From NCBI GenBank assembly GCA_050950825.1, contig JBMNIH010000002.1, forward strand, positions 32,001 to 96,000: a stretch of 64,000 bases of DNA, written 5' to 3'. The stretch's first letter is position 1. Each line of letters opens with the position of its first letter. Positions 1,678-44,800 of the stretch are shown here, in pieces. The notes under the pieces were generated by a model, which did not search any database, was not told where the DNA came from, and was given only the letters and a program-made list of their open reading frames with translations. The stretch comes from Clostridia bacterium. GTDB taxonomy: Bacteria > Bacillota > Clostridia > JAAYHZ01. Made by a program: the position numbers and the translations under genes.

Positions 1678-3795
1678 TTATAGGCTGTTTCCGTCAAGCT
1701 CAATAATTTCAAGTTCCTTTAACTTGTTAACCGTAATACGACAAGTGTCTCCCTTTTGATCAAACTTGCAGTTATCCTTCAAGAATAATGTTCGAGCATT
1801 GGATACCGGATAATCGACATCTATAACGACATTTAGAAATTCCACCATCTCTGTTATAGGTCGCATCATGTGGCCGGTATAGTTCAATAAGTAGATTAAC
1901 GTTTTTCCCTGTCCGTTCCTTCTTATATTAATGCTCATGGAAGCAGGCCCTTTGACAACGCGTACTTTATCTTTTGAACAATCCTTGATTATTTTTCCCG
2001 TTAAAGCGATATACTCGGGAAAATGCAGCTCGATTAGCAATTGCCCTATCGTCCCGGCAAAATAGATGGACTTGCCTTTTCCGTATTTATTAATATAGCA
2101 AAATCCGTTCGCACTTCTCGGCGGTTGTCCGTCATAGGAGCCTTTTAAAAATTCCGCCAGATCCAATATTCTTTCACCGCTTGTATTAACCGTCTTTTTC
2201 ACGTATTGCGGTGCAGGTATATAACGGTATGTTTTTAATTGATCGGTATACGGCGCATCGTAAACAGGCATTACATAATCGAATCGCAAAGGACCGAAGC
2301 TTTCTTTGGTCGTCAAAGTAACGCCGAAGCAATCCTCCAACCCGAACCGGTCCCTCATTTCACCGTATTCGTTATACATAGACGTTTCAAAAGAGGCTAT
2401 CAATGTTCCTCCGTTATATACAAATTGATTGACAGCTTTAATTTCTTCATCCGACATGCAAGCAATATTGGGTAAAATGATGGTATCGTATCGATTTATC
2501 AATCCGTCCGTAAGCGAAACTTCATCGATGACATCTACCGGCACGTTGTTTCTGAAGCATGTTTCATAGAACCCTTCAAACTCCTTGTGCAAGTCGCCGA
2601 TGTTCGTGAATACGGCTTCTTGTGTAAAATCGGTTTTACGGATACTGCCGCCTTTATAATAGTCCGCATTAACATTTGACCACACAACGGCAGTCTTCGC
2701 TAAAGATTCCGTCGGATAAAGGGTTTTTTCGTTTTCTTTGATAAACCGGTATACACTATAAATGTTTTCTATCAATCCCTCAATGTTGTTTTGGGGAGAA
2801 GACATTCCGGAATAAATGTGAGAACCGGACACAATTGCTTCATACATCATAAGTTTATACTCGGCCGGTGGCAGCTGATACCAATTCCAGCTTTTATGGT
2901 CTATCGCCATTCCACTGATAACCGGTTTTCCACCGCTTTGGGTCATGCAAAGCTTATCTTCGCATTCGGTTCTCCATATGGGAGTTAAATTGATATTGTT
3001 GTATAAGAATCCGCCTTCGGCCAAAAGCATGTCCTGTACTTCCATAAGACGTCTGTTTTGCCTTCCTGTCGGCCAGTTAGCCGTTCGCAAACCTGCATTA
3101 CAGTAAAGTAAAGCTTGGGGTCTTTTTTCTTTTAAAGCGTTGTACAAATGTCCAACGTATTCGGTCAAAGAGTCTATCTGGAATTCTCTTACATACTTCC
3201 AGTTGGGATTGGCACGATCTTGTTTGGAAGGAAGCTCAAATCCGTATTTTTCTTTAAATTTACTCTTGCAAGTAGTACAAAAGCAGGTTTTTTGAAAAAA
3301 GATATCTCCGTCTAAAAATACTCCGTCGATTTCATATTGGCATAGGTCTCTTATAACGTCGGCTTGCCATTTTCGATATTCCGAGTTATTGGGACAAGCC
3401 GATATTCCCGTTCCGTAAATATCTAAAGCCGGTGTTCCGTCTTCGTATACTTGTACCCAGTCGGGATGGTCTTTATAGAACTGCGGAACAAAAGAATGGC
3501 CGTTAAAATAGATAATTATTCGAATGCCATGCTTATGAAACTCTTCTATGAAAATACGTAGTAAGTCCGGATCCATACCGGCCCTGCCGGTCATATTAAA
3601 GATCGGTTTGGTATAGTCGGTTCCGCAACCTTCGCCTACTTGCATGGCACCAAAGTGCACGGTATTCGCTCCTGTTCTCCTGTATTTATCGACGATCTCG
3701 GGAATTTCTTCCGGTTTTACGGAATACAAATTCCACATGGAAACGAATCCTTCGGAGATTAAAATTACACCTTCTTCCCACCATTGTTTCATCAT
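1678..3795 (-). CDS. Glycoside-hydrolase-like TIM barrel (GHL6/GHL10-like) with beta-galactosidase trimerisation-like domain
   Basis: DLLRIFIEEFHKHGIRIIIY, HPDW, YEIDGVFLD, CFCTTC, then YDTIILPN..CMSD..FVYNGG; start reassigned to ATG at 3795 after GGAGG. Confidence 0.7.
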   Translation of the reverse strand: MMKQWWEEGVILISEGFVSMWNLYSVKPEEIPEIVDKYRRTGANTVHFGAMQVGEGCGTDYTKPIFNMTGRAGMDPDLLRIFIEEFHKHGIRIIIYFNGHSFVPQFYKDHPDWVQVYEDGTPALDIYGTGISACPNNSEYRKWQADVIRDLCQYEIDGVFLDGDIFFQKTCFCTTCKSKFKEKYGFELPSKQDRANPNWKYVREFQIDSLTEYVGHLYNALKEKRPQALLYCNAGLRTANWPTGRQNRRLMEVQDMLLAEGGFLYNNINLTPIWRTECEDKLCMTQSGGKPVISGMAIDHKSWNWYQLPPAEYKLMMYEAIVSGSHIYSGMSSPQNNIEGLIENIYSVYRFIKENEKTLYPTESLAKTAVVWSNVNADYYKGGSIRKTDFTQEAVFTNIGDLHKEFEGFYETCFRNNVPVDVIDEVSLTDGLINRYDTIILPNIACMSDEEIKAVNQFVYNGGTLIASFETSMYNEYGEMRDRFGLEDCFGVTLTTKESFGPLRFDYVMPVYDAPYTDQLKTYRYIPAPQYVKKTVNTSGERILDLAEFLKGSYDGQPPRSANGFCYINKYGKGKSIYFAGTIGQLLIELHFPEYIALTGKIIKDCSKDKVRVVKGPASMSINIRRNGQGKTLIYLLNYTGHMMRPITEMVEFLNVVIDVDYPVSNARTLFLKDNCKFDQKGDTCRITVNKLKELEIIELDGNSL

Positions 3796-3895
3796 ACCTA
3801 TGACCTCCAAGATATTGTAGTATTCATGTTTATAGATATTTTGCTTATGTGAAGCAAAATCAGTCGGGTACAAGTGCGTCTTGGATAAATGAACC

Positions 3896-4774
3896 CTATT
3901 TGTTCAATAATGCTTTGGCGATCGGTGAATCGGGTCCTAATATAACGGTTTTACCGGAGCCTTCTAAAGAGGCTTTAAGAGCATCCAATGCCAGGATAAA
4001 CTCGTAGAATTCTTGTTTGTCTAATGTATTATAGGCTTCCGCTAACCGTCTCATGTATTCTTGCTCTCCTTCTGCAACTAAAACCGCAGCTTTGGCTTCG
4101 GCATTGGAGATAATAATATTTACTTGTTTGTCCGCATCGTTACGAATAATGGAGGATTCGTATTCTCCGTCGGCTAAATATTTATCGGCCATTTGCTTTC
4201 TTTCCGATATCATTCTTGCATATACGGCTTGTTCGTTTGTTGTCGGTAAATCGAATCTTTTAATTTTTACGTCAACAACTTCAATTCCATAATTAGGAAC
4301 CAAACCTTGAACAGTAGCGGTAATATCGTCGTAGAGCTTTTTCCTGCCGCCGATTTGATCCTCGGTGATAATTTGAGTCAATGAAACCGTACCCATTGTA
4401 TTCTTCAAGGTATTGTAAGTTAAGGCATCCAGACGTTGTTCCGCAATTGCTATACTGCCTAAGGAGCGGTAAAATAGCAGCGGATCTGTTATACGCCATA
4501 AAACATAACTGTCAATTGTCATGTTTTGCTTATCTGACGTCAGAACTTCCGAAGGTTGAATATCATAAACCATAACGGCTTTCGGGAATGACTTCACACC
4601 ATCGATGAAAGGAACTTTGAAGTGAAGACCTGCTTTGTCAGTTATATTAATAATTTTTGAAAATCTTACCGTTGCCATATATTCATTTTCGGCCACAATA
4701 TAGACCGAAGAAGATAGCAAAATTATAACAGCAAGACCGATGATAGAGATCAATAACACCTTTTTCTTATTCAT
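3896..4774 (-). CDS. hflC: FtsH modulator HflC (SPFH domain)
   Basis: N-terminal TM, GLHFKVPFID, VDVKIKRFDLP, VYARMISER; coupled to hflK. Confidence 0.9.
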   Translation of the reverse strand: MNKKKVLLISIIGLAVIILLSSSVYIVAENEYMATVRFSKIINITDKAGLHFKVPFIDGVKSFPKAVMVYDIQPSEVLTSDKQNMTIDSYVLWRITDPLLFYRSLGSIAIAEQRLDALTYNTLKNTMGTVSLTQIITEDQIGGRKKLYDDITATVQGLVPNYGIEVVDVKIKRFDLPTTNEQAVYARMISERKQMADKYLADGEYESSIIRNDADKQVNIIISNAEAKAAVLVAEGEQEYMRRLAEAYNTLDKQEFYEFILALDALKASLEGSGKTVILGPDSPIAKALLNK

Positions 4775-5832
4775 TATTCCGCACCTCCTGCCGTATTGTT
4801 TGAAAGAGACGAGCTTGCAGTATCGTCTTGTAAAGTACTTGCCGAATCATCGCCGATAAAGTTTTCTAAAGGCAACAGTTTTTGAACACCGCCTTCCGAC
4901 AAGTCGATATACAATTTGACTCCGGGTAAGACCTCGGTGATTACTTCATAATACATTCGTGACCGAGTAATTCCGGGATTCAGCTTGTATTCGGAATACA
5001 TGGCTTCAAACATGGCTACGTTTTCGATTGCCTGATTAATTCGTTTTTGTTTTAGATATTCGGCATTTTGGATTAAGCTGTCTGCTTTTGCATTGGCCGC
5101 AGGCAATCTGGAGTTTGCGTATGCTCTGGCTTGATTTATTAGAGTTTCGGCATTTTGCTTCGCAGTTTCCACCGATTTAAATGCTTCAATAACCTCAAGC
5201 GTAGGCGGTTCGCTGTCTTGGATCTTGACATCGGTTAACATAATCCCGATATCGTATGTCTCCAAGGTTTCGGTAACAAATTCTCGTACCATCCTTTGTA
5301 TCGCTTCCTTACCGTCGGTTAAGACCGCATCTACATTGGTTGAACCGACAACACTGCGCACTTGGCTTTGAACAAGGTTGCGCAAAATGTCTTCGGGATC
5401 ATACGATGCGAACAAATACTTGACAGGATCTTCGATTTTATATTCAATAAAGAACTCCACATTCACGATATTGTAGTCGCCTGTAATCATTTTACTTTCA
5501 TTATCAACAACCGTGTATCCTGAGGGCTTAGTAGGATCCGTACGATACCCCAATTCCATACGCTGAAATACATTGACTTCAACTTTATGCACCTTTTGTA
5601 TGCCAAAAGGCAATTTAAAATGCACACCGGCATCATTAACGGATGTTACCTTGCCAAAGGTTGTAATAACCGCTTGGTGTTTTTCGTCTACCGTGTACCA
5701 ACAGGTGGATGCAATCAGTAAAACAATAACGATTATCGCAGCGATCGTGAAATATTTCATGATTTTCTTTGCATCCGGTTTTACAGAGTTCCCTGTTTGT
5801 CCCGATGATCCGAAATTATTATAAAAACTCAT
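4774..5832 (-). CDS. hflK: FtsH modulator HflK (SPFH domain)
   Basis: GVHFKLPFGIQ, MITGDYNIVNVE, EVIEAFKSV, TRSRMYYE; AGGAGG RBS. Confidence 0.9.
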   Translation of the reverse strand: MSFYNNFGSSGQTGNSVKPDAKKIMKYFTIAAIIVIVLLIASTCWYTVDEKHQAVITTFGKVTSVNDAGVHFKLPFGIQKVHKVEVNVFQRMELGYRTDPTKPSGYTVVDNESKMITGDYNIVNVEFFIEYKIEDPVKYLFASYDPEDILRNLVQSQVRSVVGSTNVDAVLTDGKEAIQRMVREFVTETLETYDIGIMLTDVKIQDSEPPTLEVIEAFKSVETAKQNAETLINQARAYANSRLPAANAKADSLIQNAEYLKQKRINQAIENVAMFEAMYSEYKLNPGITRSRMYYEVITEVLPGVKLYIDLSEGGVQKLLPLENFIGDDSASTLQDDTASSSLSNNTAGGAE

Positions 5833-5884
5833 CTTTGTCTAATACCTCCTATCATTTAACATTATATCTATCATATCACGGTTA

Positions 5885-5899
5885 AAGGACAGTTCTCAA
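5885..5899 (-). repeat. Degenerate RAYT-associated repeat copy
   Basis: Minus strand TTGAGAACTGTCCTT, 2 mismatches to consensus; core in loop of a GTTGA/TTAAC stem. Confidence 0.5.
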
Positions 5900-5915
5900 C
5901 AAAAATATACCTTGA

Positions 5916-6740
5916 CATCAGTTCTCAAGATCCACTGTCTCAGATCTTTGCAAGAAGTTAGATCCCATCGTGGAGGCTTTTAGAACTCGTCCTCTGCAGT
6001 GCCACTATCCCTTTCTCATAGTGGATGCCATCTTTGTAAATGTGCGGGAAAATGGTCGCGTACAATCAAGTGGTTTGTTGATAGCCACTGCAGTGAATGA
6101 GGAAGGCTATCGCGAAATCATAGGGTTTCAATTAGCCAACAGTGAATCCGAAAGCAGCTGGGGTGAATTCTTTTCCTCTCTTAAAGAAAGAGGGCTAAAG
6201 AATGTTGATTTGGTTACCTCTGACGACCATAAAGGGTTGGTCAAAGCTGTTAGAAGGCACTTTCAAGGCGCTGGTTGGCAACGCTGTCAAACACACTTTT
6301 CCAAGAACATTTTGGATCATACACCGAAGGCGCTGCAACCTGAAATTAAAGAAGAGCTACGCCGGCTTTATGAGGCCGTTGACCTTGAGAGTGCTCGTAA
6401 CATCAGAGATGGGATAATCCAAAATTATGAAGCCAAGGCGCCGAAAGCCACGGCTATTCTGGACGAGGCATTTGACGATATCACTGCTGTTCTGGCCCTG
6501 CCCTTAAGGTATCGAAAACGGCTTCGTACTACAAATAGTGTGGAAAGACTCAACCAGGAAATTCGTCGTCGTGAACGGGTTATTCGAATCTTTCCCAATG
6601 CATCATCAGCCATACGGCTTATGGGTGCTTTATTAATGGAACAGCATGAAAAGTGGCAAACAGGACACAAATATTTCAATATGCAGTTGTATTACCAGAT
6701 GCGGAAAGAGAACGATTCGAAGTCCGGTACTGCTGCCTAA
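5916..6740 (+). pseudogene. IS256-family (Mutator-like) transposase, N-terminally truncated
   Basis: FSRSTVSDLCKKLD, IVDA, TSDDHKGL, WQRCQTHF (CxxH), LRTTNSVERLNQEIRRR; in-frame TGA at 5913 and N-terminal part absent. Confidence 0.9.
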
Positions 6741-6745
6741 GATCG

Positions 6746-6907
6746 CATTTATTCCACGGTCTGTTGACAACGAGCCTCTCATGGCATGTTTTCCGGCATC
6801 GGGGCCATCCCCCACAGTAACAGGGATGGGCTTCATAGAAGGTGGATGATGCCCGGCTATCAGCCTAACATGCCATGTAACTCATTGTCAACAGCTTTCG
6901 CGGCATA
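6746..6907 (-). other. Structured hairpin element, copy 1 (in IS256)
   Basis: Nested stems CTGTTGACAA/TTGTCAACAG, ATGGCATGTT/AACATGCCAT, GGCATC/GATGCC; homologous to copy 2. Confidence 0.8.
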
Positions 6908-7088
6908 GATAGCGTCAATATACATTCGGAAATAAAAAGAGAGAGTTCACCCTTATGATAAGATTAAATCTTGTCTGTATCATATATCATTTCCATCAAT
7001 TTTTCCACATTTGTTTTTTTAATTGATTATTACACATCACCTATTTAAGAATTCATGAAGACAATAGCAAATGCACAAGTAAAGTACT

Positions 7089-7254
7089 CATTTATTCCAC
7101 GGTTCGCTTTACGACGAGCCTCTGCCGGCATGTTTAGTGGCCTCTGCGGCATCTTCCTACAGGGTGAAGCCGGATACGGCTTTGTGTGTTTGATGCCAGG
7201 CAGACAAGCCTAACATGCCGTCTACTCATCGTAAAGCGACTTTCGCGGCATAAA
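7089..7254 (-). other. Structured hairpin element, copy 2 (in ISLre2)
   Basis: Nested stems TCGCTTTACGA/TCGTAAAGCGA, CGGCATGTT/AACATGCCG, GGCATC/GATGCC; same flanks as copy 1. Confidence 0.8.
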
Positions 7255-7297
7255 GCCTACCGTCACACGGTTACAAAGTCATAGCGGTTCAAGCTGC

Positions 7298-8436
7298 TTA
7301 TGCGTCCCAAGCCAGTGTGGTCATATTCTTTAGCCACTTCATACTGCTCCTTTCCAAACCATGTATGTGACGTCTGGTATCTTCCGCATACGTCCATTTT
7401 GAATGTCTTCTTCTCAGATCTCTTATCAATTCTTCTTGTGCTTCACGCCTTTCCTTTTGCTTTTTTCGTTGTTTTTGATATTTTAGCAAGTCAAGAATCT
7501 TACCGCCGTTTCTTTTGTACGCTCTGAGCCTTGCCATGCGGTCGCAACCCAATTCGCTCCATCCCATTGGTCTGCTGCTCATTCTTGCCGACAATACATG
7601 GCTTATTTGCCCTTCTATGCAATATGTCCAGCCGCTTGTTTCTTCCACTCGGGTTTTTATCCCTTGCCAATGATTTAGAAAATATCTTAACGCATCTTCC
7701 ACTTCTTGCTTCTTGTTTTCACTTTCCGTAACCTTCAGGATCTGCTCATAGATATTCTTCAATTCCTTTTTGTCCAAACGATTCAAGGCTCCCCAAATCC
7801 AGTCTTTCACCTCGTCCGCGCTATCGTAAAGATGCGCCACTGACCTGTTTATATATTTCATCATATGGTATTTATCAAGGACATATTTGCTGTTCTCCAA
7901 ATATTCGCATCCTTTTTTTATCCACGAAGCTCCGTCTCCGACTACGTATATTCTCTCAAGATAGTCCGTATCGTATGTTTTTTCTATGTATTCGGCAACC
8001 TCCATCCAAAGCTTTTCGTTGCCTTTGCCACCCTCGTAAATACCGCAAAAGTATTTTTTTCCGATCAGCTTATATCTGGGATTCTTGGATGCTTCCCCCG
8101 ATTCATTGATAATATCCTCGAATACACAAACAAGCTTAGGCATCAGGGTATTAATCTTATGGCCCCTCGCATCTCGCTTCAAATCGCCCTTTTCATTCCA
8201 AAACTGTGCCGCCACATGATCTTCATCGGCCATGACATGAAGCCTTTTTATCTTCTTCTTTCCTTCCGGTTCCGGCATCGGCATGTCCGCCTCAATCTCA
8301 TGTACCAGATCCATTACGGCTTGTTTGCTAATGCCTTCTTCCGCTTTTATGCTCGCATTCTCTCCGCCTTTGCGGTAACTGCTGTCTATACTTTCTTCTA
8401 AGGCTCTCGCAGCTGCGCCTAGCGTTACCTTCTGGT
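7298..8436 (-). pseudogene. ISLre2-family (UPF0236) transposase, N-terminally truncated
   Basis: ADEDHV, GDGASWIK, LDKYH, IEGQISHVLSARMSSRPMGWS; frame stays homologous upstream of Met 8314 (QKVTLGAAARALEESIDSSYRKGG) to the junction at ~8436. Confidence 0.85.
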
Positions 8437-8585
8437 CGCGGCATAAACGCTTGCGACCATAGGCTGATTGCTACATTTAAAATGCCGAGGTAATTTACAC
8501 ACTAATTTGGACTTGACTTCAATAAACCATAATCATATAGTCATATTAAATTTTAAGATAAATAGGGATTAATAGAGAGTTTGGC

Positions 8586-9035
8586 ATGACAAAGGGTATT
8601 ATAACGATTTCTTTATCGGTTTTGCTTGTATTTTTATTTTTCGGCTGCACGAGCAAAATCATTGACGAAGAGTCTTTCGACAAAACGAAAACGGTACATG
8701 AGACGAATGATACCGAAGAAAAAACGGAGTATGTCCGAATATCAAGCGAGGAAGCAAAACGAATGATGGAAGAGCCGGAGAGTTATATTATTCTTGATGT
8801 TCGAACAGAAGCCGAATTCTCGGAAGGACATATTAAAGGAGCCGTTCTTATTCCTCACGATAAAATCAAAGAGCATGCCGGTGATTTGCTTCCCGATAAA
8901 GATCAAATCATACTGATCTATTGCCGATCAGGCAACCGAAGTGCATATGCTTCTTTGGAGCTGATAGAATTAGGCTATAAAAATGTATATGATTTCGGTG
9001 GTATCATCGATTGGCCTTATGATATAGAAAAATAA
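8586..9035 (+). CDS. Rhodanese-like lipoprotein
   Basis: Lipobox FFGC; ILDVRT..EFSEGHIKGA; active loop YCRSGNRS. Confidence 0.9.
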   Translation: MTKGIITISLSVLLVFLFFGCTSKIIDEESFDKTKTVHETNDTEEKTEYVRISSEEAKRMMEEPESYIILDVRTEAEFSEGHIKGAVLIPHDKIKEHAGDLLPDKDQIILIYCRSGNRSAYASLELIELGYKNVYDFGGIIDWPYDIEK

Positions 9036-9047
9036 CGGACAACTATA

Positions 9048-10001
9048 TCATAGATAATGGATTCTTTGCTTGATCTCACTTTTCCTCAGCAAATTTCTCA
9101 TAATTTCTTTGCATTTTGGCATGTTCATCATTTGAAATCCTTTTTTGTTTAGCCGTGCTATTTGCGACAAAGTCAGATTACCGATTATTTTACCGATTTC
9201 CTTGTATCCTAAGTTGCATAAGCATCGAATTAAGAAAACGGCAACGGCTTTTATAGGAGCAAGGCTTCGATCGTATTTCACCTTGATTAAATCCGTATCC
9301 GGTATGCCGAATTCTTCGGCAACGGTGTGCAAAACGGTTTCCGGATCCAAATCACGCTTGTATACGGTTCGTTCGCTGCGATACTCGTAGGCAGGTTTAT
9401 GTATAAATTCATCAATCCTTTCAAAAAGCTTTTGGTCGATTACAACTCTTCCAAGTCTCGACACGAATTCTACGTACCGCTTTAACGCCTCATCGGGCTT
9501 ATGATGAAACTTTGACAAAATGTATTCTTTATCGATCAGTCCGAATTCGTCTTCCTTTTGTCCGATGTATATGCCGTAAGAGGAAAACGGATAGTCCCGG
9601 ACACAATCACGATATCGTGATATGTCTTTCGGATTGTTATGAATGTACGCAGATACTACCAATTCATAACGCTCGTTCTCAATCACAACATTTTTATATC
9701 GGTCTTGAAACAAGGGACCTAAGCGTTTGTATTTCCGATTGTAGTACAGAACATAGCTTAAGTTGAGGCCTTGCATAAATTTGGACATGTCACAGCCTTG
9801 AGGATCAAAATGAATGTGCACGTGAGTGTCCATAAGACAATAAGCCAAAATTTTGCATTGGTATTTTCTTTGGTATTTTGCCATGCGTTTTAAATATTCT
9901 CTTTTGTCTTCATCGTCTCGGAACAATTTTATCTCGCTGATACTCCTGCACATAATGTGATGATTCGCTTCGGGATTTTTCTTTCGTGCCGTTCTTGCCA
10001 T
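9048..10001 (-). CDS. RAYT-like HUH/Y1 tyrosine transposase with C-terminal DnaA-domain-IV-like HTH
   Basis: YCLMDTHVH (HUH), LFQDRY, AYIHNNP (catalytic Tyr), YPFSSY; tail VAEEFGI...LGYKEIGKIIG; no tnpB adjacent. Confidence 0.85.
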   Translation of the reverse strand: MARTARKKNPEANHHIMCRSISEIKLFRDDEDKREYLKRMAKYQRKYQCKILAYCLMDTHVHIHFDPQGCDMSKFMQGLNLSYVLYYNRKYKRLGPLFQDRYKNVVIENERYELVVSAYIHNNPKDISRYRDCVRDYPFSSYGIYIGQKEDEFGLIDKEYILSKFHHKPDEALKRYVEFVSRLGRVVIDQKLFERIDEFIHKPAYEYRSERTVYKRDLDPETVLHTVAEEFGIPDTDLIKVKYDRSLAPIKAVAVFLIRCLCNLGYKEIGKIIGNLTLSQIARLNKKGFQMMNMPKCKEIMRNLLRKSEIKQRIHYL

Positions 10002-39531: not shown

Positions 39532-39648
39532 TTCCGGCAGCGACCTATCTTCCCGGGGCGCCACGCCCCGGTATTTTCAGCACCGAGAAGCTTAACTGCC
39601 GTGTTCGGGATGGGAACGGGTGGGTCCTTCTCGTTATTGCCACCGAAA
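39532..39648 (-). rRNA. rrf: 5S rRNA
   Basis: Minus strand CCCGTTCCCATCCCGAACACGG.AGTTAAG; terminal helix TTCGGTGGC/GCTGCCGGA. Confidence 0.95.
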
Positions 39649-39725
39649 ATCTTTATTCTCTTCGCGCGCTTTTTATCGCACCCTCAAAACTGCATAATAC
39701 GTCTTTTTTTCTTCAGCGACGACCT

Positions 39726-42647
<2,922 letters not shown>

Positions 42648-42905
42648 TTTCCTTTGGTCCATCATTTCATATAGGTTGATTGTCCCAAGCTCGTCGCTTT
42701 TCCTGATTATTTTTTTAGCATTGTTTCAGCATTGTTTTTTTGTCGTTTTCGATAAAATTGCAGACTCAGTGAGTCACTCGTTACCGTTTTTTATTTCGGC
42801 TTCTCGTTTTAACTCTCTTTGTCTTCCTTTTTGTCGCGGTTCCATTCTTCATGGAACCTTTTGACGCATTATGCAGTTTTCAAGGTGCGATCGCTTGCGC
42901 GTTCT

Positions 42906-42982
<77 letters not shown>

Positions 42983-43064
42983 TCAAATCCTTGATCATGT
43001 ACAGTGTATTGAACCGTCAATCGACCTTATACGATTACGGCGAAATTTCTTCCGTCGTCAATCT

Positions 43065-44608
<1,544 letters not shown>

Positions 44609-44800
44609 AATTCAATCTTCAAACCCTCTTCGGGTCTCTTGTTTGTCCTGTCTTTTTTTAGACTTTTTGTCCCGTGCGATTTTCTCGCACTTTGGATTTA
44701 CTTTTAAATGTTAAACTCTCGCTTTTTCAAGCTTAAGTTTGACGGGTTCAATACACTGTTCATTTTTCAAGGTTCTGTGCCGTCTCGCGACGGCTTGCTT

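Follow-up and report, generated by a model that had tools for sequence, protein, structure and literature searches.

The locus described here raises the question of why two insertion sequences (ISs) of different families carry the same hairpin with a promoter-like sequence inside it, next to each other, and what kind of element this hairpin is. The window, that is, the whole 64-kb stretch of DNA analysed, contains two copies of the hairpin, A and B. Each is about 170 nt long (170-175 nt); they have the same flanks, differ in their interiors and agree in 78% of alignment columns. The flanking words CATTTATTCCACGGT (at 6746 and 7089) and CTTTCGCGGCATA (at 6895 and 7240) each have exactly two mismatch-free occurrences in the 64-kb window. 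The features of the two copies are given below, with bit scores from the covariance model R1.

6742..6914, minus strand, hairpin copy A, single-strand-origin-like, in the IS256 element (158 bits)
6895..6907, minus strand, RS_B-like motif in copy A, TATGCCGCGAAAG, at the hairpin's loop-distal base
6886..6891, minus strand, -35-like TTGACA of copy A, inside helix 2
6862..6870, minus strand, extended -10-like TGTTAGGCT of copy A, where helix 3 meets the inner hairpins, after an 18-nt spacer
7085..7258, minus strand, hairpin copy B, single-strand-origin-like, in the ISLre2 element (160 bits)
7240..7254, minus strand, RS_B-like motif of copy B, TTTATGCCGCGAAAG
7207..7235, minus strand, promoter-like stretch of copy B, with -35-like TTTACG at 7235-7230, a 17-nt spacer and TGTTAGGCT at 7215-7207

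Read along the minus strand, copy A has TTGACA (6891-6886), 18 nt and then TAGGCT (6867-6862), with a TG at 6870-6869. In copy B, the -10-like hexamer TAGGCT occupies 7212-7207. Both transposase genes of the window are fragments, and the ISLre2 copy sits inside the IS256 copy (IS types A and B are among the six defined below).

5920..6907, plus strand, IS256-family IS fragment, positions 490-1477 of the 1550-bp type A, left end truncated
5970..6740, plus strand, 3' part of an IS256-family transposase ORF, 256 aa, matching Pfam Transposase_mut 148-378 of 379
6908..8436, minus strand, ISLre2-family IS copy of type B, positions 1-1531 of 1996, left part missing
7298..8314, minus strand, C-terminal fragment of an ISLre2-family transposase ORF, 338 aa, matching Pfam UPF0236 157-391 of 400
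8436..8518, plus strand, tail part (positions 1468-1550) of the IS256 element that was interrupted, including the right terminal inverted repeat

The IS256 fragment is 100% identical over 988 bp to an intact type A copy, and its ORF, for which an intact copy matches NF033543 (transpos_IS256) at 391.6 bits, corresponds to the C-terminal 231 residues of a Mutator/IS256 transposase. An intact copy of the ISLre2 type matches NF033529 (transpos_ISLre2) at 257.9 bits. The 10 bp at 8436-8445 duplicate those at 6898-6907 and represent the target duplication from the ISLre2 insertion, and a metatranscriptome contig joins 6897 to 8436, which is the uninterrupted form of the IS256 element. Of the six RNA runs that include this stretch, four were examined; their metatranscriptome contigs contain both ISs, and such contigs carry no information on strand, transcript ends or level. 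The right inverted-repeat end of the ISLre2 copy, at 6908, lies upstream of the -35 in copy A, at a distance of 16 bp. Guerillot et al. (PMC3942029) describe a target rule for ISLre2/TnGBS elements, whose right end comes to lie upstream of sigma-A promoters, at 16 bp from the -35. At the right ends of type B, a -35 with at least 4/6 matches is present at the 16-bp offset in 6 of 12 locatable copies, the window copy included. That copies A and B are neighbours is thus due to where the ISLre2 copy inserted, 16 bp upstream of the -35 in the IS256 copy. Judged by this position, the hairpin promoter was recognised as a promoter by an independent targeting system, in one single event. The window also contains a gene with Y1_Tnp and DnaA_C matches at 9048-10001.

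Across the host assembly (3.55 Mb in 11 contigs), 29 copies of the element fall into six sequence types, all of them inside IS256, ISLre2 or IS3 elements, with IS family names assigned by NCBIfam.

Type A, 6 copies, IS256 family, 1550-bp IS
Type B, 13 copies, ISLre2 family, 1996-bp IS
Type C, 1 copy, IS256 family
Type D, 3 copies, IS256 family
Type E, 5 copies, IS3 family with split orfA/orfB
Type F, 1 copy, ISLre2 family

The contigs that bear the 29 copies are chromosomal and 119-728 kb long. The repeat unit extends past the hairpin by 73 bp in type A, 183 bp in type B and 130 bp in type E, and the hairpin is therefore internal to each IS, where it follows the transposase stop codon and precedes the right terminal repeat. 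REP/RAYT systems with their REPIN-like hairpins were considered and rejected, as all copies proved internal to DDE-type ISs. Outside the hairpin, blastn detected no nucleotide similarity among types A, B, E and F. Nucleotide identity between the three IS256 subtypes is 82-85% in the hairpin, 73-81% in the transposase gene and 61-73% in the tail. Of the 29 copies, 13 have the folding strand on the G-rich strand, indicating no replication-orientation bias. The module is absent from other ISs of the same genome, namely an IS256 type (7 copies), an IS3 type (6), an ISLre2 type (4), IS1182-like types (13 and 7 copies), IS1634 (4), IS4 (4), IS91 (4), IS481 (3), IS110 (3) and IS30 (3).

All six types share one architecture, in which a base helix is followed by an internal loop, a 15-bp helix 2, helix 3 and a junction with two to three inner hairpins. 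The sequence of helix 2 is variable with compensation, and in neither orientation is there a T-run after the hairpin. In 6/6 subfamilies, the minus strand folds better than the plus strand, by 10-17 kcal/mol. RNAalifold on the six subfamilies gave 58 pairs, 13 of them with a compensatory change. A pattern search that took one genome per species gave at least 103 loci, mostly in Clostridia metagenome-assembled genomes from digesters and also in Acetivibrio, Anaerobacterium and Thermoclostridium. Among the first 100 of these, model R1 gave 67 full-length matches (132-178 bits) and another 27 matches that ended at contig ends; the opposite strand scored 22-50 bits at the loci listed. In a set of 57 distinct sequences, in which the invariance of two conserved words is by construction since the search pattern fixed them, 94.5% of cells pair compared with 89.5 +/- 0.3 in shuffles, 23 pairs are changed on both sides compared with 11.7, and 0 of 500 shuffles reach the observed values. 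Slid controls pair at 30-46%. The minus-strand G-U pair 14:191 is GU in 57 of 57 of these sequences.

A preliminary description of this DNA had proposed two hairpin elements with common flanks and nested stems, and a main stem that differs in sequence between the copies but pairs in both, and this is borne out by sequence comparison and folds. The promoter spacings it gave (TTGACA-N18-TAGGCT and TTTACG-N17-TAGGCT) are exactly those found, and the ORF positions confirm that the folding strand is antisense to the IS256 transposase gene and sense to that of ISLre2. Its further claims, that the minus-strand fold is favoured and that the multi-stem hairpin covaries, agree with the folds of 6/6 subfamilies and the invariant G-U pairs, and with RNAalifold and the shuffles, respectively.

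What kind of element this is became apparent from a comparison with plasmids. Model R1 was built from the six IS-borne subfamilies only, with no plasmid sequence, and was run unfiltered on three plasmids. Each gave one full-length match, at 3767-3931 of pT181 (40.1 bits, E 1.1e-10), 2043-2210 of pC194 (36.1 bits) and 637-800 of pE194 (31.0 bits); E values ranged from 1e-10 to 5e-8, and the next-best match reached only 13 bits. The matches begin at RS_B of the palA/ssoA lagging-strand origin; they open with TTTATGCCGAGAAAA and close with TGGAATAAA, where the IS-borne element has TTTATGCCGCGAAAG ... TGGAATAAA. Folds with DNA parameters showed that the origins of pT181, pC194 and pE194 share the architecture of the IS-borne hairpin. 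The ssoA of about 160 nt takes up its fold as single-stranded DNA (PMC5703833), and RNA polymerase primes it in one orientation only (PMC5703833, PMC8860593). RS_B is located in palA/ssoA and also in ssoU, ssoT and ssoW, and ssoA works in a restricted set of hosts and limits the host range of plasmids, as stated in PMC5703833. The published RS_B of ssoA is TTATGCCGAGAAAATTT and the published CS-6 is TAGCGT, as given in PMC4598088.

The IS-borne element and palA/ssoA have in common an imperfect palindrome of about 160-170 nt that folds on one strand only, a base helix formed by RS_B and its partner (TTTATGCCG.GAAA ... TGGAATAAA), and a variable, covarying long helix followed by inner hairpins. 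The pC194 origin also has the 3' internal-loop motif GAGGCTC. Measured against what defines these origins, the RS_B word TTATGCCGCGAAA agrees with the published TTATGCCGAGAAA at 12 of 13 positions and is invariant in the six subfamilies; the element is a one-strand imperfect palindrome of 170-175 nt (150-200 nt being expected), more stable on the minus strand in 6/6; and in the homology of its RS_B base helix and its long-hairpin architecture it corresponds to an RS_B origin in the wide sense. The two groups differ in several respects. The IS-borne RS_B reads GCCGCGAAAG instead of GCCGAGAAAA, the IS-borne element is richer in G+C, and the plasmid origins score 31-40 bits with R1 compared with 132-178 bits within the IS-borne type. 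The IS-borne type is without CS-6 (TAGCGT/A), the ssoA-defining hexamer in an inner loop that terminates the primer RNA, and has instead the conserved TGTTAGGCT, which we read as an extended -10 and which sits 5' of the first inner hairpin; no CS-6 TAGCG[TA] is present in the IS256, ISLre2 and IS3 copies that were folded. Finally, it resides in chromosomal ISs and not on a Rep-encoding plasmid or other rolling-circle replicon, given that 29/29 copies are inside ISs. No Rep_trans or Rep_1 match was found in the genome, where the Rep_1 control is to be read with the fact that it matched in no control genome, and no Rep gene was found among the element neighbours scanned. With blastn, neither 72,556 plasmids nor 50,697 phages yielded a match at E 0.01, so that no plasmid-borne source of the IS subtype is known; the plasmid relatives are visible to the covariance model only.

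We therefore consider the element, with a probability of about 0.85 and judging from its sequence, to be a DNA signal and not a new RNA, related to the RS_B-bearing palA/ssoA-type origins of Firmicutes rolling-circle plasmids. It is not ssoA sensu stricto because CS-6 is missing and blastn finds no plasmid or phage copy, and it is best classified, by the same sequence features, as a new IS-borne subtype characterised by GCCGCGAAAG, the lack of CS-6 and a conserved TGnTAGGCT. A search of Rfam had been proposed as a check on novelty. The element matches no Rfam family: there were only two chance snoRNA matches in 5500-8800 at E up to 10, and only rRNA and tRNA in the whole window at gathering scores. 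Its kind is nonetheless already known as a DNA element, which lowers the novelty. Two other candidates were rejected: an integron attC site, whose core word GTTAGGC fits (on inspection, the partner is not paired with GTTAGGC, and the copies are dispersed), and a 6S-RNA-like RNA or ribozyme, for which there was no Rfam support and against which stands the homology to a DNA origin.

The preliminary description had named loss of the promoter spacing in homologues as evidence against an origin. We examined this in a metagenome scan that required only RS_B, with position 9 free, and the 3' partner, and that returned at least 103 loci with 87 distinct elements. Among the 87 distinct elements listed, RS_B position 9 is C in 54, A in 28 and T in 5, and a TTGACA-like hexamer stands at a fixed offset in 65. 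On the folding strand, 72/87 have TAnnnT after 16-19 nt, compared with 17/87 on the other, and the combination of TG and TAnnnT was counted in 38/87, compared with 2/87 on the reverse strand and 9/87 after shuffling. At the position of the -10, relatives with different interiors show TGGTATAAT, TGGTAAAAT or TGATAAAAT. The geometry of -35 and extended -10 is thus kept, in a strand-specific manner, in divergent relatives among the 87 elements listed. CS-6 is present in 1/54 of the C-type and 16/28 of the A-type relatives listed. A-type relatives adjoin genes for MobV/MobP relaxases (4) and CadD (2) among the loci listed, and these relatives look like ordinary plasmid origins.

Matches were present in 9 of 60 relatives of the host. 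The two IS families of the preliminary description turn out to be correct but understated: among the matches listed, the element closely follows the 3' end of transposase or recombinase genes from about ten families, 5-100 nt beyond the stop codon in the loci listed; at one IS30 locus, it lies upstream of the gene. In the loci listed, the folding strand is the sense strand in ISLre2 and in 10 of 13 IS3 carriers, and likewise in IS21 (IstB), in an unclassified DDE type of about 490 aa, for which there are sub-threshold IS6 matches only, and in ISNCY_2. It is the antisense strand in every IS256 carrier seen, the 3 remaining IS3 carriers, 5 large serine recombinase elements, IS110 (2), IS30 (1), IS21 (2) and possibly IS630 (2 ambiguous loci). 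In a tree built from the 170-nt alignment, with weak support, IS256 origins form one clade, and the origins of ISLre2, IS3, IS21, the DDE type of about 490 aa and ISNCY are intermixed.

Taken together, these observations suggest how the module could act. When the carrying strand (minus in the window) becomes single-stranded, its approximately 170 nt would fold into a long imperfect hairpin in which RS_B pairs at the base, helix 2 rebuilds the -35 and the junction exposes the extended -10. By analogy with ssoA, host sigma-A RNA polymerase would bind this folded hairpin and make a short primer, and DNA polymerase would extend the primer, turning the single strand into duplex. The module is an integral accessory of the IS, situated after the transposase stop codon and ahead of the right terminal repeat. 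In circle-forming ISs, the circularised strand of the figure-eight intermediate would be displaced as single-stranded DNA, and the module would prime the complementary strand. What the data show is the homology, the structure, the strand, the promoter geometry and the position within ISs; that the module primes, and at which step, we infer. For primer synthesis by RNA polymerase, the indirect signs are the strand-specific -35/TG/-10 geometry and the ISLre2 insertion at the distance typical of promoters. That the module primes the second strand of the circularised strand during transposition by copy-out/paste-in is, by this analogy, our tentative proposal, to which we give somewhat less than an even chance. 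Copy-out is favoured because most carriers form circles, because no IS4, IS1182 or IS1634 type of the host genome carries the module and because the strand fits the donor ends. Circle formation is described for most of the carrier families, namely IS256, IS3, IS21, IS30 and ISLre2 (PMC3299598 and, in the passages on these families, PMC3942029). IS2 has no donor other than its right end (PMC3299598); the sense strand is therefore circularised, in agreement with 10 of the 13 IS3 carriers listed. IS256 is said to cleave its left end first (cited in PMC3942029), from which it follows that the antisense strand is circularised, in agreement with every IS256 carrier seen.

Several observations argue against a copy-out role. 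In vitro, ISCth4, an IS256-family element of Clostridium thermocellum, uses either end as the donor (5 right, 3 left; n=8; PMC7780238), and 3 of the 13 IS3 carriers listed have the opposite orientation. To our knowledge, there are no known single-stranded intermediates of the serine recombinase, IS110, approximately 490-aa DDE and possibly IS630 carriers, and the copy-out role leaves carriers that excise by serine or DEDD recombinases unexplained. Moreover, the module-less sister types of IS256 (7 copies), IS3 (6) and ISLre2 (4) have multiplied, too. The more general idea that copy-out in Firmicutes passes via a free single-stranded circle, and that many IS families independently acquired a plasmid-type origin which converts this circle to duplex, we regard as doubtful. 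If it were true, the strand carrying the origin would tell the donor IS end in each family.

The carriers left unexplained by copy-out would be covered, whatever their mechanism, if the origin served horizontal transfer, which is the main rival reading. It would prime the complementary strand when the IS rides on incoming or replicating single-stranded DNA, such as that of rolling-circle plasmids and of conjugative or mobilisable elements, and would stabilise the vector so that the IS spreads. This would account for serine recombinase elements, IS110 and possibly IS630, and for both orientations within IS3. A local origin would be a useful gift since ssoA is host-restricted according to PMC5703833; a single-strand origin has been reported for the integrative conjugative element ICEBs1 (PMC4595007), and the adjacency of A-type relatives to the four MobV/MobP and two CadD genes among the loci listed points in the same direction. 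However, the 29 genome copies are chromosomal with no rolling-circle Rep gene found, and IS4, IS1182 and IS1634 would profit equally, yet none carries the module. On linear incoming DNA, an internal origin leaves the IS end 3' of the origin single-stranded, and the match of donor end and orientation in IS256 and IS3 would be a coincidence. Overall, we consider a transfer role unlikely. A passenger without benefit to the IS, that is, origin modules which spread by recombination at their conserved ends and persist where harmless, between the stop codon and the terminal repeat, is more improbable still. It would fit the definition of RS_B as a plasmid recombination site given in PMC5703833, the intermixing of origins across IS families in the weakly supported tree of the 170-nt alignment, and the similar copy numbers of module-less sister IS types; against it, compensatory changes keep the pairing, the hairpin is more conserved than the adjacent non-coding tail, the promoter geometry survives deep divergence, and decayed copies are a minority among matches in relatives.

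Action as RNA or in duplex DNA, in the form of a structured 3' untranslated region or an antisense RNA, either of which would stabilise or repress the transposase message, or of a duplex promoter reading out of the IS, also has little probability in our estimate. The G-U pairs, and the exchanges of G-U for A-U or G-C, fit RNA as well, the element is always 5-100 nt past a stop codon in the loci listed, and it is present in metatranscriptome contigs, but these contigs show neither transcription nor its strand. The -35/-10 was good enough to draw an ISLre2 insertion into duplex chromosomal DNA, and a duplex promoter would read across the circle junction in sense-oriented carriers; in IS256, it would read antisense. 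The relationship, however, is to an origin described as working as single-stranded DNA, and no Rfam family matches. One RNA role could not suit all carriers, as the strand that folds is the sense strand in certain families and the antisense strand in the rest. A transcript from the internal promoter would miss the 5' half of the hairpin, which is without a T-run in either orientation. The three readings offered in the preliminary description thus fare differently: an ssoA-type origin is supported through the homology detected by R1, with priming in copy-out as its conditional extension, and we rate a structured RNA and a hitch-hiking mini-element as less likely.

Among other known systems, the Frpo of conjugative plasmids is a single-stranded DNA hairpin that rebuilds a -35 and a -10 for RNA polymerase, and its presumed role, on the strand that large plasmids transfer, is in early gene expression or in priming; by description, our element is alike in rebuilding -35/-10 in a single-stranded hairpin. 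The bridge RNA of IS110 and the omega RNA of IS200/IS605 are family-specific and guide their own recombinase or nuclease. They likewise are conserved structured elements of 150-200 nt beside a transposase gene. In contrast, the hairpin described here is common to unrelated families in either orientation, has a DNA-origin homologue and matches nothing in Rfam. The functional single-strand origin of ICEBs1, which according to the available description is on a chromosomally integrated mobile element and in this respect similar, serves relaxase-driven single-stranded transfer and replication, whereas the ISs described here encode no relaxase or Rep. Our literature search found no paper that describes single-strand origins as parts of ISs. 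ISLrh/pGK12 was rejected as a precedent, as the insertion of this IS5-family element alters plasmid host range via inverted repeats and no origin inside the IS is described (PMC12016507), and there is no mention of a 3' hairpin for IS1447 (PMC6211511). The nearest precedent is a remark by Guerillot et al. 2014 (PMC3942029) on Mycoplasma ICEs with Mutator-like DDE transposases, in which an sso-like stretch is located between the transposase gene and the terminal repeat. By this description, a plasmid-like single-strand origin in a circle-forming element is common to both. The Mycoplasma ICEs are large, conjugative and presumed to undergo transient replication, and their stretch resembles one Mycoplasma plasmid, whereas the carriers here are simple ISs of 1.5-2 kb from many families.

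The element is real, widespread and well defined, and represents a known kind of signal in an undescribed setting. Its presence hints that the carrier ISs go through a single-stranded stage. For the step from figure-eight to double-stranded circle, only 'host replication' is named in the literature (PMC7780238, PMC3299598). With a dedicated priming signal in the IS itself, this conversion would become testable, and the biology of ISs would be connected with that of rolling-circle plasmids. For rolling-circle vectors in cellulolytic Clostridia, the module is a source of candidate single-strand origins adapted to the host. It is also a recognisable marker that is easily mistaken for a new RNA. 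Because it is common to unrelated ISs, it breaks metagenome assemblies, and 27 of the first 100 of at least 103 loci ended inside the element.

Two copies of a more divergent hairpin variant, scoring 27-31 bits, were found at locus L065:
JBMNLH010000008.1, 2302-2451: divergent hairpin variant
JBMNLH010000008.1, 178-333: divergent hairpin variant
Both copies are without the base helix of RS_B, the plasmid single-strand-origin motif at the foot of the hairpin, yet TTTAC/TC ... GTGTTAGCCT is retained. Within this one 4-kb locus, the variant hairpin lies 3' of an IS256 gene in antisense orientation and 3' of an IS3 gene in sense orientation. The hairpin family thus reaches past what our search patterns could gather, and is wider than the set obtained with them.

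C-type origin hairpins, the relatives with C at RS_B position 9, were located 14-19 nt beyond the 3' ends of large serine recombinase genes on at least five metagenome contigs (L168, L195, L202, L217 and L222). The recombinases are ~500-550 aa long with CcrB/XisF-like matches that are sub-threshold, and at L168 the hairpin is flanked by two such genes. These loci may be small integrative mobilisable elements. Among the matches listed (L030-L132), 27 of the 100 genome-contig loci have a contig end within the hairpin, at positions 53-74 of covariance model R1. It seems that short-read assemblies were broken by the common conserved 5' part of the hairpin followed by type-specific interiors.

The ISLre2 copy that splits the interrupted IS256 (window 6908-8436) lacks the final 465 bp of the full-length 1996-bp type B element, so that its left end is missing together with the 5' portion of its transposase gene. 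A 10-bp target repeat is retained on both sides of this copy, and the deletion therefore stops exactly at the IS boundary. For another type B copy (e21, C8:56512 region of the host genome), the insertion site is 16 bp upstream of a promoter, TTGCAA-18-TATAAT, of which the -10 is the left end of a type A IS256 copy. Thus, ISLre2 homes repeatedly to promoter-like words inside other ISs.

Approximately 500 bp from the interrupted IS256 is a further ORF:
Window 9048-10001, minus strand: 317-aa ORF, Y1 transposase-DnaA HTH fusion (Pfam Y1_Tnp 3.9e-16, Bac_DnaA_C 1.9e-7)
Its architecture, an IS200-like Y1 transposase domain joined to a DnaA C-terminal helix-turn-helix, is RAYT-like. No connection was found between this ORF and the window hairpins. 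Other features of the window and genome are as follows:
Window 39532-44613, minus strand: complete rRNA operon (16S, one tRNA, 23S, 5S)
Genome C7:294054-296567, and three more copies: IS91-family transposase gene with XerC/integron-integrase-like tyrosine recombinase gene
The rRNA operon is ordinary, and the IS91-family/XerC-like gene pair is present in four copies in the host genome.
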